A stretch of DNA of 33,840 bases. Source: an uncultured Clostridia bacterium (GTDB taxonomy: Bacteria; Bacillota; Clostridia; Christensenellales; UBA1242). The first letter of the stretch is position 1. Each line of letters opens with the position of its first letter. Under the pieces are notes generated by a model. The model worked only from the letters and a program-made list of their open reading frames with translations. It made no database searches and was not told the origin of the DNA. Shown piece after piece: positions 5,270 to 26,524 of this stretch. Location of the stretch: positions 1 to 33,840 of the forward strand of contig CALWTP010000074.1 in assembly GCA_944384495.1 (NCBI GenBank). Direction: 5' to 3'. The position numbers were made by a program, and so were the translations under genes.

Positions 5270-6919
5270 ATGAAAAAATATTTATCATGCTTGGTTTTGG
5301 TGGCTATTGTTTTCCTAATGCCGATCGTTTTGGCGGGATGTGGAGAGAGTGGTGTTTTGCAGGCAAAAAATATTACCCGAATTTTTGGTAAAGGCGAAAA
5401 TTTTGAAATAGGTGAGCTTGCCACAGTTAAAATTGTCGATGACGAAAGTGAGGAGTTTTTGGATGAAGGTGACTACAACTTGACCACCAATTATAATCCT
5501 GCCGAAGAGGGCATATACAATGTGACAATTACTGTTGATGATTTGCAATATGCATATGAGGTTGTTGTGATAGATTTTTCCGCTTTATCGGTTCAGTATG
5601 GTGGCAAGCTTGGAGATATAGCCTTGCCAAGTGCATTGAGTTTGGAGTGGAAATATGTAAATGAAGTGGTTGGACCTGTCGGGACAAATATGAAAACAGC
5701 ATATTTTACTGACAGCAATGGGCAAACAATAGATGTAACACTGCCAGTTTGTGTGCTTGAAAATCAAAACTATTGGATCACGCAGGTCACAATTGAGGAT
5801 TGGATTTATGGACAGACGCCTTCTACTCCTTATGCAAGTGCATTGATCGGGGATGTGGAGTATAGTTATTACACAAACCAAAATGGCGAGAGGGGCGAGA
5901 GGCTTGCAAATATACCAACTGAAGCGGGTGACTATTTTGTTGAAGCGAGTGTGACTGGTGTGGAAGGATATGGCAATATTTTTTCACAGAAAAGTTTTAA
6001 AATTGAAAAAGCAACGATTTCTGTTCAAATAGATACTCAAAATATAATCGAAAAAGACTATGATGGAACGAGCATATTTAATGACAACAATTTTTCTATA
6101 AATGATTATGTGACTTTGAGCTGTCAAACTGCAGATATTGAAGGATTTGATTTTCAACTCTCTCACGACTTGTATTTTGTTGCCGATCAAACGACTGGAC
6201 AGGAGCAGATTAATGCGGGAAACTGTTTTTTAAAGGCAACTTTAAATATGCCAGCTTCGCAGTTTGAAAACTTTCAATTTGAAAATGGGCAAGCAAGTCA
6301 AAATATCTTTATCCCTGCAAGGATAAATAAGCAAACTCCACAAATTGATCAGATGCCTATTGCAAGTGCAATTATAAGTGGACAAACCCTGTCAGAAAGC
6401 GATATAACAGGCGGAGTTGTGACTGCAAATTTGATTGTTGACGGCGTGTCTCAAAGCAAAAGTATTCTTGGCAGTTGGCAATGGCAAAATCCAGAGCAGG
6501 TTGCTATAGAAAGTGGAAATTATCAGGCAATATTTATTCCAACCGATAAGAATTTTTCATCTGTCACACAAACTCTTTCAGTCACTGCTGGATTTGACGA
6601 TGGAGTTAGTGCATATATAACCGATGACTTTGGTGAAACTATTGCATCTTTCGTTCGAGATGGCAACAATTTTACCCTGCAATCACCTCAAAACATAGAC
6701 AGCTTTAATATTGTCATCGATTTTGCCTCAGGCTTAGATGCTGTGTATACATTTTATTATGATGAGGAGTTGTATGAAATTGATTTTCCTTATTTCAGTG
6801 GCGACATATTGTCATCGGTGACAAGCTTTGAACAACAAGTTTACAGCAAGATTCGGATAGAACTAACTTTAACAGACTATGTCGATAGTCGTACATTAAT
6901 TTTCGAAATTTTGATTTAA
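5270..6919 (+). CDS. Surface lipoprotein with Ig-like / YDG-type (MBG-like) repeats
   Basis: Signal peptide with lipobox LAGC (MKKYLSCLVLVAIVFLMPIVLAGCG). The KATISVQ...EKDYDGTS motif is typical of MBG/YDG adhesin-type domains. SD GAGGAG. Confidence 0.75.
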   Translation: MKKYLSCLVLVAIVFLMPIVLAGCGESGVLQAKNITRIFGKGENFEIGELATVKIVDDESEEFLDEGDYNLTTNYNPAEEGIYNVTITVDDLQYAYEVVVIDFSALSVQYGGKLGDIALPSALSLEWKYVNEVVGPVGTNMKTAYFTDSNGQTIDVTLPVCVLENQNYWITQVTIEDWIYGQTPSTPYASALIGDVEYSYYTNQNGERGERLANIPTEAGDYFVEASVTGVEGYGNIFSQKSFKIEKATISVQIDTQNIIEKDYDGTSIFNDNNFSINDYVTLSCQTADIEGFDFQLSHDLYFVADQTTGQEQINAGNCFLKATLNMPASQFENFQFENGQASQNIFIPARINKQTPQIDQMPIASAIISGQTLSESDITGGVVTANLIVDGVSQSKSILGSWQWQNPEQVAIESGNYQAIFIPTDKNFSSVTQTLSVTAGFDDGVSAYITDDFGETIASFVRDGNNFTLQSPQNIDSFNIVIDFASGLDAVYTFYYDEELYEIDFPYFSGDILSSVTSFEQQVYSKIRIELTLTDYVDSRTLIFEILI

Positions 6920-21625: not shown

Positions 21626-21689
21626 TATAAATTCAGAAATATCTTTCTGTTTATTTTTAAAATACCGAGAACTTGTTTTGATAAGATTT

Positions 21690-21935
21690 CACCAACTGCC
21701 TCAAAAAGCCAAAACTCCACCAAAGCTACCTCATGGCACACTGAAGTGTCTCCTTAATGATGCTGCCGTCAGGCTCTGACATGGTTCAGAGATTTCAATT
21801 GCATAAGACCTTGATTTCATCGCCTTGACTTTTCACACATATTTGACAAAATCAAACCGCAACCAAGCGTTCAATCCCACTATAGCGGATTGTCGGTTAC
21901 AGAGCACCGCTAACTCTCCATCTATCTCGGCAGTT
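21690..21935 (-). ncRNA. ffs: Signal recognition particle RNA, long (Bacillus-type, with Alu-like 5' domain)
   Basis: The minus strand contains the domain IV core CCAUGUCAGAGCC-UGAC-GGCAGCAUC (complement of 21759-21780). This is colinear with E. coli 4.5S CCAGGUCAGGUCC-GGAA-GGAAGCAGC. The 5' AACUGCC pairs with the 3' GGCAGUU (21694-21700). The 5' region GCGGUGCUCUGUAACC resembles the Alu-domain GGUG...UGUAAC motif. The locus is GC-rich relative to its surroundings. End coordinates are approximate. Confidence 0.7.
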
Positions 21936-22086: not shown

Positions 22087-22833
22087 ATGGAGATGAAAAT
22101 GTCAGAAAAAACACAGAAATCAAATGCAAGAAGATTTTTGGAGGCTTACAACAATATTGATTATGCACTAAAAACTCGTTATAACTTTAGCCGGGCGACA
22201 GGTTTTTCCGATCTCATTCGTAAAGTCGTATCAATAAATTATGTTGTTCGCAAATATCAAGATGAACTTATTGATTATGGCAGGCTTAGGAATGCAATCA
22301 TTCACAACAATCATGAAGATTTTATAATTGCCGAGCCTCATATTGAAGTGGTACAAAACATTGAACATATTGAAAAACTGCTGACAACTCCTCCTAAAGC
22401 GGTGGAAACGGTGGGAAAAAGAAAGGTATTGACGATCAATTCTGGCAAAAGCATGAGAGAGGTTATCATGCTTATGGCATCGTCTAATTTTAGCAATATT
22501 CCGGTATACAATCAGCAAAATGAGCTTATTGGAGTGGCAAATGGGCAAAAAATATTGAATTCGTTGGGACAATATTTAATCACGGGCGGAAAATGCTCCA
22601 CATTTTTGGATAATGTCCAAATTGAGGACATGCTCTCAAGCCTAAACGATACGACATATTATGTTGTCAAGCCATCTTCATGTACAGTGGAGGAAGCTTT
22701 ATCTGAATTTGATAAAAATCATAAGTTGCTGGCAATACTTTTCACCAAAAATGGCAATAAAAGTGAACTTCCTATTGGCATCATGACAGGAGCAAACGTC
22801 GTTGAGGCACAAAAGATTTTGGAAGATTATTGA
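22087..22833 (+). CDS. HEPN-like (Rx4H) N-terminal domain fused to a CBS-pair (Bateman) module
   Basis: The N-terminal ~95 aa are helical and end in GRLRNAIIHN, which fits the HEPN Rx4-6H motif. The C-terminus has two CBS repeats (VLTINSGKSMREVIMLMASSNFSNIPVY and YVVKPSSCTVEEALSEFDKNHKLLAILF). The likely start is the third ATG at 22099, after GGAG. Confidence 0.75.
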   Translation: MEMKMSEKTQKSNARRFLEAYNNIDYALKTRYNFSRATGFSDLIRKVVSINYVVRKYQDELIDYGRLRNAIIHNNHEDFIIAEPHIEVVQNIEHIEKLLTTPPKAVETVGKRKVLTINSGKSMREVIMLMASSNFSNIPVYNQQNELIGVANGQKILNSLGQYLITGGKCSTFLDNVQIEDMLSSLNDTTYYVVKPSSCTVEEALSEFDKNHKLLAILFTKNGNKSELPIGIMTGANVVEAQKILEDY

Positions 22834-22950: not shown

Positions 22951-23048
22951 TTTTTTAATTTTATATCAGTTTTTAAATTTTATATCAGCTTTTAATTTTG
23001 TATTAGTTTTTATGTTTTATATGAGATTTTAATTTTATTTTTATCACG
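22951..23048. repeat. Five degenerate tandem repeats of about 19 bp (consensus TTTTAATTTTATATCAG)
   Basis: Units begin at about 22951, 22971, 22990, 23007 and 23026, immediately upstream of the ileS promoter. Confidence 0.65.
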
Positions 23049-23102: not shown

Positions 23103-23131
23103 TTGACAATAGTTTTTTAAAAATATATAAT
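23103..23131 (+). promoter_or_regulatory. Promoter of the T-box/ileS operon
   Basis: TTGACA at 23103-23108, a 17-nt spacer, then TATAAT at 23126-23131. Confidence 0.65.
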
Positions 23132-23134
23132 GGA

Positions 23135-23395
23135 GTAGATTATAAAGGCGTTTGATAAAAGACAGGATTTTTAGATGATTTCTCAAAGAGAGTTGCTGGT
23201 TGGTGAAAAGCAATAGAATAGTTTAAAAATTATCACTTTTAAAGCTGTGACCGTGAAAATCTTTACATTGCGATGGATCAGTAATGGTTTGCCGGGACTT
23301 CCCGTTATAGAAGAGGTGGGTGATGGCCTGCTCAAAGTTGACAAGTGGTTTATAAAGCCTTGGAAGGCTCTTGTGGCTTATTCCAGGCTTTTTTG
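23135..23395 (+). promoter_or_regulatory. T-box leader (Ile specifier AUC)
   Basis: AG-box AGAGAG (23187-23192), distal-loop motif GGTTGGTGAAAAG, and a candidate specifier AUC followed by A (23232-23235). The T-box/antiterminator segment AAGTGGTTTATAAAGCC carries UGGU, which would pair with tRNA ACCA. A terminator AAGCCTTGGAA/TTCCAGGCTT plus T-run lies at 23355-23395. Confidence 0.8.
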
Positions 23396-23413: not shown

Positions 23414-26400
23414 ATGAAAAAAGAACCAGCTTTACCTAATTTTGTCGAAATTGAACATGGAATGCTAAAGTTTTGGAAGGAAAACGATTGTTTCCATAAG
23501 CTCGTCAAAAAGAATGAGGGGCATGAGCGTTTTAAATTTTTAGATGGCCCTGCGACTGCAAACAACAGGCTTGGTGTGCATCACTTTTGGGGACGAACAC
23601 TTAAAGATCTTACCATAAGATATAACGCACTCAAAGGCAAGGACTGTATGTACCAAAATGGTTTCGATGGTCAGGGATTATGGGTTGAGGTCAATGTGGA
23701 GAAAGAACTTGGGCTGAACGGCAAACCTGAAATTGTTGGCTATGGCATTGATAAATTTACAAATAAGTGTATGGAGAGGGTCAACTATTTTGCCAATGAG
23801 ATCACAAATCAAAGCATCAGAATGGGGCAGTGGATGGACTGGGACAACAGTTATTACACAAATTCTGACCACAACATACTTTCAATTTGGCATTTTTTGA
23901 AAGAGTGTGACCGTCATGGATGGATTATAAGAAAAAACAGACCGATGGCATGGTGTCCTCGTTGTGGAACAAGCCTGTCAGAGCATGAGATGTCATCCTC
24001 ATATCATGAAGTTGAACATACTGCTCTATTTATCAAACTGCCAGTCAAGGGAAAAGACTTCAAAATAGTCGCATGGACAACGACTCCATGGACATTGACT
24101 GCGAATGTGGCATTGGCGGTACATCCTGACCTTGACTATGCACTGGTAGATTTTCATGGTGAAAAGCTTTTGCTTGGAAAGGATAGGCTCAATATTTTAA
24201 AGGAAGATGTTCAAATTTTGCAAGAATTTAAGGGGCGTGAGCTTGTGGGGCTTGTCTATGAGACTTGTTTTCCAGAGCTTCAGGAGCAAAATTTTGAGCA
24301 TAAAGTTGTGGCATGGGATCTTGTAGACAACGTTGAGGGAAGCTGTGTTGTCCATATTGCACCGGGCTGTGGAGTTGAAGACTTTGAGCTTGGACAAACT
24401 CTGTCGCTACCTCAAATTTGTCCAATCAATGAACAGGGTGTCATGCTTGACAGCTGTGGATTTTTGGCGGGCAAGAGTGCAAGCGATGTTGCAAGCCTAG
24501 TGTCACAAAGACTTAAAGAAGACGGAAAATTGTTATATGCTCACCGTTATAAACATAGTTATCCATATTGCTGGAGATGTAAAACCGACCTTGTGTATAA
24601 ATTGATAAGCGGATGGTTTATCAAGATGGACGACATTCGTCCAATGGCACTTAAGGCAATTGAGGATGTCGAATTTAAACCTGCCTATGCAAAAAAACGA
24701 ATGGCAGACTGGCTGACAAATATGGGCGACTGGAATATTTCACGAAGCAGGTTTTATGGCTTGCCTTTACCATTCTATGTATGCAACAAGTGCGGAAAAG
24801 TCCATGTAATTGGCAGTAAAGATGAATTAAAACAAAGAGCAGTTGATCCTTCTCTTGTTGACAAGCTTCCAAATATTCACAAGCCATGGATTGACGAGAT
24901 AAAAATCAAATGTGACTGCGGAGAGGAAATTTCGAGAATAAGCGATGTCGGAGATGTCTGGCTGGACGCAGGAATTACTCCATTTAGCACGAAAAAATAT
25001 TTTACAGACAAAAAATTCTTCAAAGAAAACTTCCCTTCAGACTATGTCTGCGAGATGATTGAACAGATCAAGCTTTGGTTCTATTCTCTGCTTATCATGA
25101 GTGTGGTGCTCACTGGTAAAGCTCCATATAAAAAGGTTGTCACATATCAATATGTAAAAGATGAACATGGTGGCGAATTCCATAAGAGTGGAGGCAATTC
25201 TCTCGAGGCTGATCATGTGGCAGACAAGGTGGGAGCAGATGTTGTGAGATATCTCTTCTCTTCTTCTCCACCATCAAGTGATATGCGATTTGGCTTCTCT
25301 TTAACTGATGAGGCAAGACGAAAACTGCTCGCTTTTTGGAGTATATACACATTCTTTAACACCTATGCTTGTATCGATAATCCGGCTCTTGATGATTTCG
25401 TAGTTGATGAGAGCTTGCTCACATATTCAGATCAGTGGATACTTGAAAGTGTCAATCGTTTTATCGAAAACAGTGACAAAAATTACAGCGATGATAAAAG
25501 CTATGCAGTAGTTCATGATTTTGAAAAACTTGTAGATGATATTTCTAATTTCTATATAAGAAGCAATAGAAAGAGATTTTGGAAGAGCGAAAATAAAGAC
25601 GACCAAATGACAGCTTATTATTGTCTTTATTATGCAATCAAAAATATTGCACGTGTTATGACACCTATCACTCCTTTCTTATGTGAGTATATTTGGCAAA
25701 ATCTTGTTCGTCAGATCGAAAAAAATGCGCCAATTTGTATTATGCTTAGTGGTTATCCTAAAGCCGAAGAAAAGAGGTTCGATCAAATCATTGAACAGGT
25801 CAGTCTTGCACGTGAGATCATCTCATCAGCATCAAGACTTCGAAATGAAAATCAAATCAAAGTGAAACAACCTTTAAAAAAAATGTTTGTCGGTGGTGAT
25901 GAAAAAATTGAGGATGTATTAGATAAACTTGGCGACCTTATCAAAGAAGAATTAAACATAAAAGAGCTTGTCACCATTCAAGATGACAGCATATTTAATG
26001 ACGAATATCTGACTGTGAATTTCAAAAAAGCAGGAGCAATTTTGAAAGGGGAAGTGCAGAAAGTTAAAAACTTGCTTGCGACACTTTCAGATGATGAAAT
26101 GGCTGGATGTGTTCGTGAATATAAACAGGGAAAAGTCAATATAAAAGAATTTAAAGATTTTGACAGTGACTTATTCAACCTCGAGAAGAAGCCAAAGAGC
26201 GAATTTGTGATTTCGCATGAAAATGGAATAACTGTTGTGCTTGATATAACTCTTGACCAAAAACTTGTGGAAGAAGGGTATTATAGGGAATTTGTAAGAG
26301 GACTGCAAGTGCTTCGAAAGGAGGCTGATTTCAGGGTTGACGAGCGCATTTTTGCCTGCTTTAACACCGCTGACGAGACCATGAAAAAACTTATAAAAGA

Positions 26401-26524
26401 CAATAAAGAAAAGATCAAGCAGGAAGTGCTTATCAAGGAATTGTTGCCAGCAATCGACAATCCGACCATATCAAAGGAAATAGAAATAGGTGAAAAAACT
26501 ATTGAAGTGAAGTTTAAAAATTAA
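23414..26524 (+). CDS. ileS: Isoleucine--tRNA ligase (type 2)
   Basis: Start at the ATG at 23414 after AGGAGG; the track start lies inside the T-box terminator. HIGH-region variant GPATANNRLGVHHFWGR, KMSKS-region variant EFHKSGGN, CP1 zinc motifs CPRCGT and CWRCKT, and the matching Ile T-box upstream. Confidence 0.93.
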   Translation: MKKEPALPNFVEIEHGMLKFWKENDCFHKLVKKNEGHERFKFLDGPATANNRLGVHHFWGRTLKDLTIRYNALKGKDCMYQNGFDGQGLWVEVNVEKELGLNGKPEIVGYGIDKFTNKCMERVNYFANEITNQSIRMGQWMDWDNSYYTNSDHNILSIWHFLKECDRHGWIIRKNRPMAWCPRCGTSLSEHEMSSSYHEVEHTALFIKLPVKGKDFKIVAWTTTPWTLTANVALAVHPDLDYALVDFHGEKLLLGKDRLNILKEDVQILQEFKGRELVGLVYETCFPELQEQNFEHKVVAWDLVDNVEGSCVVHIAPGCGVEDFELGQTLSLPQICPINEQGVMLDSCGFLAGKSASDVASLVSQRLKEDGKLLYAHRYKHSYPYCWRCKTDLVYKLISGWFIKMDDIRPMALKAIEDVEFKPAYAKKRMADWLTNMGDWNISRSRFYGLPLPFYVCNKCGKVHVIGSKDELKQRAVDPSLVDKLPNIHKPWIDEIKIKCDCGEEISRISDVGDVWLDAGITPFSTKKYFTDKKFFKENFPSDYVCEMIEQIKLWFYSLLIMSVVLTGKAPYKKVVTYQYVKDEHGGEFHKSGGNSLEADHVADKVGADVVRYLFSSSPPSSDMRFGFSLTDEARRKLLAFWSIYTFFNTYACIDNPALDDFVVDESLLTYSDQWILESVNRFIENSDKNYSDDKSYAVVHDFEKLVDDISNFYIRSNRKRFWKSENKDDQMTAYYCLYYAIKNIARVMTPITPFLCEYIWQNLVRQIEKNAPICIMLSGYPKAEEKRFDQIIEQVSLAREIISSASRLRNENQIKVKQPLKKMFVGGDEKIEDVLDKLGDLIKEELNIKELVTIQDDSIFNDEYLTVNFKKAGAILKGEVQKVKNLLATLSDDEMAGCVREYKQGKVNIKEFKDFDSDLFNLEKKPKSEFVISHENGITVVLDITLDQKLVEEGYYREFVRGLQVLRKEADFRVDERIFACFNTADETMKKLIKDNKEKIKQEVLIKELLPAIDNPTISKEIEIGEKTIEVKFKN

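Follow-up and report, generated by a model that had tools for sequence, protein, structure and literature searches.

A probable HEPN-CBS protein encoded at a conserved chromosomal position in gut Clostridia

The subject of this study is a 33,840-nucleotide (nt) stretch of DNA from an uncultured Clostridia bacterium (Christensenellales, UBA1242; assembly GCA_944384495.1, contig CALWTP010000074.1, positions 1 to 33,840), hereafter the window. Within it we focused on an open reading frame (ORF) at 22087-22833 of the forward strand, which a preliminary description of the DNA had proposed to encode a ligand-gated ribonuclease (RNase) and possible stand-alone defence effector. The ORF is present as described, with 248 amino acids (aa), and it is clearly a genuine gene. 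Its product is probably a small protein that joins an RNA-cutting domain of the HEPN type to a nucleotide-sensing pair of CBS motifs, and we accept this "HEPN-like plus CBS" reading with high confidence. The protein is encoded by a chromosomal, vertically inherited gene of gut Firmicutes and is not a mobile anti-phage element.

A search of a large protein collection returned 1,525 homologs. Among the best 120, identity to the window protein is 65-99%; the few with a source name are metagenome-assembled genomes of Clostridia, and the database labels read "CBS domain-containing protein" or "hypothetical". Searching with the N-terminal domain alone (aa 1-100) gave 593 representative clusters at an expectation value (E) <= 0.001, most of which are 225-250 aa long, that is, of the same architecture. 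A literature search found no paper describing this HEPN-CBS family. Because a GGAG sequence lies 7 nt 5' of the third in-frame ATG (M5, 22099) and the homologs are mostly 242-244 aa long, the true start is probably this ATG, giving a protein of 244 aa.

The C-terminal half of the protein is confirmed as a tandem CBS (Bateman) module, in agreement with the preliminary description. Pfam CBS (PF00571) matched it in two stretches at E = 1.4e-08 (35.4 bits, cut-off 24), and the PDB sequence matches were CBS proteins, with MJ1225 and MJ0100 matching the first motif (CBS1). The full-length AlphaFold2 (AF2) model, with a predicted local distance difference test score (pLDDT) of 86.8 and a predicted TM score (pTM) of 0.76, resembles dozens of solved CBS-pair structures at a Foldseek probability of 1.0, and the Foldseek search of the whole model returned CBS structures only. 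CBS1 shows the beta-alpha-beta-beta-alpha pattern in this model, and the two motifs have the tandem fold of a Bateman module. In the second motif (CBS2) we found G231-I-M-T234-G-A-N237, with a family consensus of LGIxTxxD, which we take to be the canonical ribose-binding G-h-h-T-x-x-D/N signature of adenosine-ligand CBS sites; from general knowledge of CBS domains, CBS2 is thus a predicted adenosine-ligand site. The CBS1 site is degenerate in the window protein (G149-V-A-N-G-Q-K).

Both AF2 models, full-length and domain-only, show the N-terminal ~100 residues as helical. Modeled alone, the domain reached a pLDDT of 90, with helices at residues 13-31, 40-47, 52-56, 58-71 and 86-100. The preliminary description had called the first ~95 residues helical and had let the domain end with LRNAIIHN; the helical character holds, but the motif occupies residues 67-74 (nt 22285-22308) and is followed by a loop and by helix 86-100. 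Helix 58-71 carries R68 and N69 in its final turn, and H73 opens the loop to the last helix. In the HEPN superfamily, the Rx4-6H motif sits at the helix end or in the loop before the last helix, and an insert is usually found between helices 2 and 3 (PMC3710099). The helix topology and motif position of the domain model agree with this account, as far as topology goes, and the R68-N69-x3-H73 motif provides the Rx4-6H spacing and the polar residue after the arginine throughout the family.

Conservation among the homologs places the emphasis on the same residues. R68, N69 and H73 are invariant in alignments of 88, 95 and 93 diverse homologs, which reach down to ~25% identity. The sole invariant columns are L67, R68, N69, H73, A82 and P84 (88-95 diverse members, mean column identity 24-28%), and the R-N-x3-H motif is also kept in the homologs of Enterococcus faecalis and Carnobacterium. 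The earlier reading of LRNAIIHN as an Rx4-6H signature is borne out by this invariance, and a lack of conservation of the R and H residues, which would have spoken against it, was not observed in the 95 homologs. Judged from its sequence, the motif may be regarded as catalytic in type.

Several results of the profile and fold searches weigh against the HEPN assignment. The N-terminal part of the window protein scored nothing above curated threshold in Pfam, NCBIfam or PADLOC, and the sole PADLOC match of this domain was a weak one to REase_II (E = 0.0015). The Foldseek search of the N-terminal model found nothing significant in the PDB (best E = 1.3, none with E <= 0.001) or in BFVD (best E = 0.79); the PDB matches with the highest TM scores were the HEPN domain of sacsin (3o10_C; query TM score [TMq] 0.47, E = 4.0) and a HEPN toxin (7ae8_A; TMq 0.44, E = 8.8), neither of them significant. 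A PDB sequence search with the N-terminal profile reached HepT at E = 1.1, and one with a single distant homolog gave nothing useful. When the N-terminal profile was compared by hhalign with the single sequence of the SO_3166 HepT, which was checked against the PDB, the result was not significant (P = 0.0012), nor was that for the family profile against a profile of 121 HepT sequences of low diversity (62-94% identity), at P = 0.015 and a probability of 2.9%. Both alignments centre the RN..H motifs on each other, and because the profile comparison is weak and is aligned around the motif, the weak HEPN matches could stem largely from these seven residues.

On the other side of this balance stand the homologs, whose weak matches converge on HEPN families. 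Scored singly against Pfam, all below threshold, 27 of 95 matched RiboL-PSP-HEPN and 13 matched HepT-like (best E = 0.0017), with three each for Apea-HEPN and Cthe2314-HEPN. Against NCBIfam, HepT_toxin was matched by 9 of 52 (best E = 0.00062) and every other family by at most two. The PADLOC matches were to CARF1--CARF_HEPN (15 of 52, best E = 8.1e-05), RTasHEPN (four), Csx1, CARF2_HEPN and Cas13c; in one homolog, P0240, aa 5-89 match positions 310-388 of the CARF_HEPN model, in the C-terminal part of its 410 positions. Across these three scans no rival fold recurred among the homologs, and a non-HEPN fold was not assigned to the domain by any of the searches. On the profile side, the earlier HEPN assignment is supported by the recurrent weak matches of the family but is not formally significant for the window protein itself. 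Since these weak matches converge on HEPN and the motif is both invariant and placed as expected, we consider a HEPN domain very probable. Two further models recur weakly on the N-terminal domain, namely Pfam DUF6548 (15 of 95 members, best E = 6.9e-05) and the PADLOC candidate PDC-S64 (9 of 52, best E = 1.2e-05); these may be uncatalogued HEPN-like families.

To place the gene among its relatives, GTDB species genomes were scanned with a close alignment (A1), which gave 126 relatives, and the best 80 loci (58-85% identity) were kept. Of the 80 fetched loci, 77 extend far enough downstream, and in every one of them the isoleucyl-tRNA synthetase gene ileS comes immediately after the HEPN-CBS gene, whether or not the upstream block is the same. 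The order of the housekeeping block is nifSU, signal recognition particle (SRP) RNA, HEPN-CBS gene, T-box-ileS, rRNA methyltransferase and pseudouridine synthase, and a homolog of only 35% identity keeps the order gene, ileS, methyltransferase, pseudouridine synthase. The identity of the HEPN-CBS protein to the window copy correlates with that of the methyltransferase (r = 0.87) and the pseudouridine synthase (r = 0.80), and its divergence is about the same as theirs, with a mean difference of ~3 points. Therefore, because its identity follows that of its neighbors and is about as high, these data indicate that the gene descends vertically under housekeeping-like constraint.

We considered a functional link to ileS and rejected it. 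The adjacency is universal in the clade of the window but does not occur in E. faecalis, Carnobacterium, Syntrophomonadaceae and others, and it may therefore be positional only. The IleS protein encoded downstream of the HEPN-CBS gene has a bimodal distribution across the related species, being either 73-85% or ~33% identical to the window IleS over near full length, with two loci at 54-55%, and its identity is uncorrelated with that of the HEPN-CBS protein. It looks as if a divergent type has repeatedly replaced ileS in situ, with the flanking genes left in place.

Relatives also occur in cultured bacteria. The E. faecalis homolog is identical to Q834D7, a "CBS domain protein", and is found on at least 1,000 contigs, in the order fhs, HEPN-CBS homolog, lspA, rluD, pyrR, pyrP. 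Given this order, and since EF1721 is pyrR and EF_1723 is LspA, the homolog corresponds to EF1724. In transposon sequencing (Tn-seq), EF1724 was listed as a genus-core, "Fitness Important" CBS-domain protein (PMC7701990). A point that weighs against reading this as a phenotype of the gene itself is that its stop overlaps the lspA start by 4 nt, so polarity on lspA and rluD could account for the Tn-seq signal. Carnobacterium, Ruminococcaceae, Syntrophomonadaceae and Symbiobacteriaceae contribute further members, whose surroundings differ and are mostly metabolic. Phage and plasmid collections contain hardly any members, with two unverified "phage" contigs and four plasmids found. One of these contigs, an "UNVERIFIED_ORG" Enterococcus phage record (L096, OR846607.1), is bacterial chromosome with the order fhs, EF1724, lspA, rluD, pyrR, pyrP. 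The other, an "UNVERIFIED_ORG" Listeria phage record of 2.2 kb (L095, OR849199.1), matched the HEPN-CBS protein. The tblastn matches to "Listeria" and "Enterococcus phage" records had suggested the c-di-AMP (cyclic di-AMP) receptor CbpA/Lmo0553 as a candidate; it was rejected, Lmo0553 being a CBS plus ACT protein.

Based on these features, we lean, somewhat better than evenly, toward physiological RNA control by a ligand-gated dimeric RNase, by analogy with characterized systems. The protein would be a small cytoplasmic enzyme with an N-terminal domain of the HEPN superfamily, carrying an intact R-N-x3-H motif, and a C-terminal Bateman module. As in studied HEPN RNases and CBS proteins, it would form a homodimer, here held together by the CBS modules, and an adenosine-containing ligand would bind chiefly at the canonical CBS2 site. 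Occupancy by the ligand would change the dimer geometry, so that the composite site made of two R-N-x3-H motifs is either assembled or separated, which would switch a metal-independent cleavage of RNA on or off. In this way the stability or processing of cellular RNA could be tuned to nucleotide or energy status. A physiological rather than an immune role is suggested because the gene belongs to the vertically inherited core genome of this organism and its relatives.

The neighborhood, with ileS and its T-box, the SRP RNA and rRNA-modifying enzymes, hints at translation-related RNA as the target, but this may be purely positional. A bolder version of the proposal, which we regard as speculative and put forward tentatively, is that the family is a domesticated ligand-gated HEPN RNase in the core RNA-metabolism toolkit of many Firmicutes, including EF1724 and the gut Clostridia clade, which would sense an adenine-nucleotide messenger or energy charge and act on translation-related RNA. 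The idea of such a target comes from the persistence of positions beside ileS/T-box, SRP RNA, lspA-rluD and the rRNA methyltransferase.

The first alternative to the physiological RNase is an anti-phage abortive-infection effector like DS-11, in which a phage-induced adenine-nucleotide signal on the CBS module would turn the HEPN domain into an indiscriminate RNase. DS-11 is a single E. coli protein of CBS and HEPN domains that has been validated as anti-phage and loses function with CBS Y157A or HEPN R330A/H335A (PMC13092281); it corresponds to E. coli WP_000257686.1 and to NCBIfam NF053863, "CBS domain-containing anti-phage protein", and stems from DefensePredictor. The window protein resembles it in having the same two domain types with an Rx4H motif in one chain and in the proposed logic, an adenine-derivative ligand gating a dimeric RNase; DS-11 protects E. 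coli, needs residues of both domains and serves as a precedent for CBS-gated HEPN activity. However, DS-11 is ~365 aa long as calculated from its cloned coordinates (1,098 nt) and carries the CBS part first (Y157) and the HEPN part last (R330, H335), whereas the window protein, at 244-248 aa, has two-thirds of that length and the opposite domain order. Against the NF053863 model it scored 23.1 bits (cut-off 260), and only the CBS part took part in the match (aa 111-173 to model positions 82-140). The window protein is not a member of the DS-11 family.

The genomic evidence on an immune role divides between the distant members and the clade of the window. Distant members (25-31% identity) lie partly in restriction-modification or defence-like settings (L103, 3940-5678; L085, 3902-5714; L094, 1-3044; L104, 3774-5750), which weighs against a purely physiological reading of the family, as do the homologs' weak matches to the defence HEPN models CARF_HEPN and RTasHEPN and to the candidate PDC-S64. 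The member on a "Ca. Chlorohelix" plasmid overlaps the ORF of an Eco57I-type methylase by 4 nt, one distant member adjoins a DUF2971 protein and one a DUF6361 protein with a helicase, that on a Rhodococcus conjugative plasmid adjoins an HNH nuclease and a DEAD-box helicase, and another is flanked by an FKBP gene and sbcDC. A partner gene in this branch was looked for and rejected: because the three ~340-aa upstream ORFs (DUF2971, a fragment of the Eco57I-type methylase, and one unassigned) have no relation to one another, a conserved two-gene system is absent from the distant members. By contrast, DS-11 is an accessory defence gene and the window gene is a syntenic core gene. It and its relatives in the 80 fetched species loci hold one fixed chromosomal position among housekeeping genes and evolve at a housekeeping rate, the window protein matches no PADLOC family, and the family is nearly absent from phage and plasmid collections, at least one of the two "phage" contigs being bacterial chromosome. 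In view of the settings of some distant members, the family as a whole could conceivably have an immune role. The proposal of a stand-alone defence effector in the preliminary description is not supported at this locus, given the conserved block, the unbroken ileS adjacency, the neighbor-like divergence and the failure of the PADLOC and DS-11 models, and regulated RNA turnover or processing appears likelier than abortive infection, which we rate as unlikely for the window gene.

A second alternative, to which we give slightly less credence than to abortive infection, is that the N-terminal domain is no nuclease at all and acts under CBS control as a helical regulator binding RNA, DNA or protein, or as an inactive HEPN module. 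That no catalytic HEPN was matched significantly by profile or fold fits this view, and some homologs bear the label "predicted transcriptional regulator" at the Joint Genome Institute (JGI). Non-catalytic HEPN domains are known in Swt1 and sacsin, but inactive domains characteristically do not have the Rx4-6H motif (PMC3710099). In this family, the invariant N-terminal residues are the HEPN catalytic R, N and H together with L67, A82 and P84, a pattern more typical of an active site than of a binding surface, and Pfam detected no helix-turn-helix or other DNA-binding family in the window protein and 95 homologs.

It is very improbable that the protein is the toxin of a HepT/MNT (type VII) or similar toxin-antitoxin pair. 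HepT proteins (DUF86), such as SO_3166 (PDB 5YEP and 6M6U), are small and helical and show "..LRN..vH" followed by one more helix, as the window domain does, and the weak NCBIfam and Pfam matches of the homologs to the HepT toxin family and the alignment of the motif region with SO_3166 fit such a role. However, HepT works with an MNT partner, whereas the window gene has neither MNT nor a small partner beside it, its neighbors being the SRP RNA gene on the opposite strand and ileS with its own promoter; a partner is also missing at this position in the related loci, and the fusion to CBS is a likely regulator in its place. The window protein gave no match whatever to Pfam HepT-like, and one homolog scored individually reached 13.7 bits (threshold 23.5).

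Whether this kind of fusion had already been catalogued was left open in the preliminary description, and it can be answered. HEPN-CBS fusions, sometimes with an HD domain, were recorded computationally by Anantharaman et al. in 2013, who grouped the CBS fusions with Swt1/Abi2-like HEPN domains and predicted nucleotide-regulated RNA stability (PMC3710099), and the CBS plus HEPN protein DS-11 has been validated (PMC13092281), but with the domain order reversed. The fusions of the 2013 survey (alr3009, gi 118580987) share the domain combination with the window protein and are likened to it by that combination only; some of them carry an HD domain, which the window protein does not have. Among the 25 Pfam families with the most matches from the 95 homologs (E <= 1), HEPN_Swt1 does not appear, and the supplement of the survey lists no CBS entries. 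What is new here is the reversed HEPN-CBS order, the unnamed family and its core-genome status.

Two other groups of proteins share part of the proposed logic. CARF-HEPN proteins of the Csm6/Csx1 type and the KEN enzymes RNase L and Ire1 combine a sensor with a HEPN domain, and their composite Rx4-6H site is activated by ligand-driven changes in the dimer, as would be the case here; the best single profile match among the homologs is to the CARF_HEPN model. The sensor is CARF in the former and ankyrin or kinase in the latter, whereas in the window protein it is the Bateman module. Pfam found no CARF match in the window protein, and none of the window ORFs scanned is a cas gene. In the other group, CbpB/DarB, CbpA/Lmo0553 (CBS plus ACT) and AcuB are small cytoplasmic Bateman proteins of Firmicutes whose CBS parts are similar to that of the window protein. 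Their ligands are adenine nucleotides, including c-di-AMP, AMP/ATP and Ap4A. Their output is a protein-protein interaction or an ACT domain, and none of them has a HEPN domain.

The coordinates of the gene, its domains and the neighboring elements are collected in Table 1. The preliminary description had called the gene monocistronic, flanked by AT-rich, repeat-bearing spacers and lacking an antitoxin-like partner, and the locus agrees with this. Upstream, the large bacterial SRP RNA gene is divergently oriented at a distance of 156 nt; it is directly upstream in 5 of 11 related loci scanned (L001, L007, L013, L020 and L037) and close by in one more. On the downstream side, a perfect promoter of the sigma-70 type and a T-box leader serve ileS separately, and no antitoxin-like partner ORF of the HEPN-CBS gene is present. 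The leader falls below the Rfam gathering score of 93, so a default Rfam scan misses it; at that score no T-box was found in the 11 related loci. The GTG start that the ORF finder chose for ileS (23345) falls within the T-box leader.

Table 1. Positions of the HEPN-like/CBS gene, its domains and adjoining elements in the window
Feature	Position	Strand	Basis
HEPN-like/CBS coding sequence	22087..22833	+	ORF list; 248 aa as called
N-terminal helical domain, HEPN-like, ~aa 10-101	22114..22389	+	AF2 domain model, homolog search
R68-N69-x3-H73 motif	22288..22305	+	Invariance in alignments; position agrees with PMC3710099
CBS motif 1, ~aa 105-165	22399..22581	+	Pfam CBS best stretch aa 108-152
CBS motif 2, ~aa 176-247	22612..22827	+	Second Pfam CBS stretch, model secondary structure
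SRP RNA gene	21665..21930	-	Rfam RF01854, 161 bits
ileS promoter TTGACA-17-TATAAT	23103-23131	+	Promoter scan, 12/12 positions
ileS T-box leader	23142-23365	+	64.5 bits, E = 2.6e-13
ileS coding sequence	23414-26524	+	ATG 23414 after GAGGAGG

The spacer repeat is an AT-rich tandem array of a 19-nt unit, TTTTTAATTTTATATCAG, in 4.7 copies at 22952-23038, ahead of the ileS promoter. The closest relatives (L005, L006, L007 and L009) have no such array in their intergenic regions, and it is therefore probably incidental, a strain-specific expansion. After the HEPN-CBS stop in the window we found no convincing terminator, the hairpin there being no better than shuffled sequence (fold z = +0.81); in L005 and L007, a clear hairpin with a T-run follows the gene, as judged by eye. 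The window is otherwise ordinary chromosome, with comM, dprA, topA, trmFO, hslVU, thiF, nifS and nifU, and an rRNA-type S-adenosylmethionine (SAM) methyltransferase and a pseudouridine synthase are encoded downstream of ileS. Two of its other ORFs deserve mention. A 549-aa ORF at 5270-6919 has no Pfam match at E <= 0.001. A trmFO/gid-like ORF of 416 aa at 14369-15619 matches Pfam GIDA only in its C-terminal part (aa 232-343 to model positions 276-389) and overlaps the called hslV start (15543); it may have a divergent N-terminal region or a mis-called start.

Most of what is known of HEPN RNases concerns suicide or immune effectors, such as Cas13, Csm6, HepT, the Abi proteins and DS-11. If the physiological reading is true, a sensor-coupled HEPN enzyme fixed in the core genome would represent an effector recruited to routine physiology, and Firmicutes would possess an unrecognised nucleotide-responsive switch for RNA decay; if the domesticated version is also true, the family would be a new class of housekeeping RNase derived from immune-type effectors. 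With the architecture foreseen in 2013 and DS-11 validated as a relative in kind, such an outcome would be only moderately surprising. The proteins are soluble and ~240 aa long and one of them has a cultivable, genetically tractable host, which makes the hypothesis directly testable. Moreover, the family is present in an important pathogen, as EF1724 of E. faecalis, and in abundant uncultured gut Clostridia.

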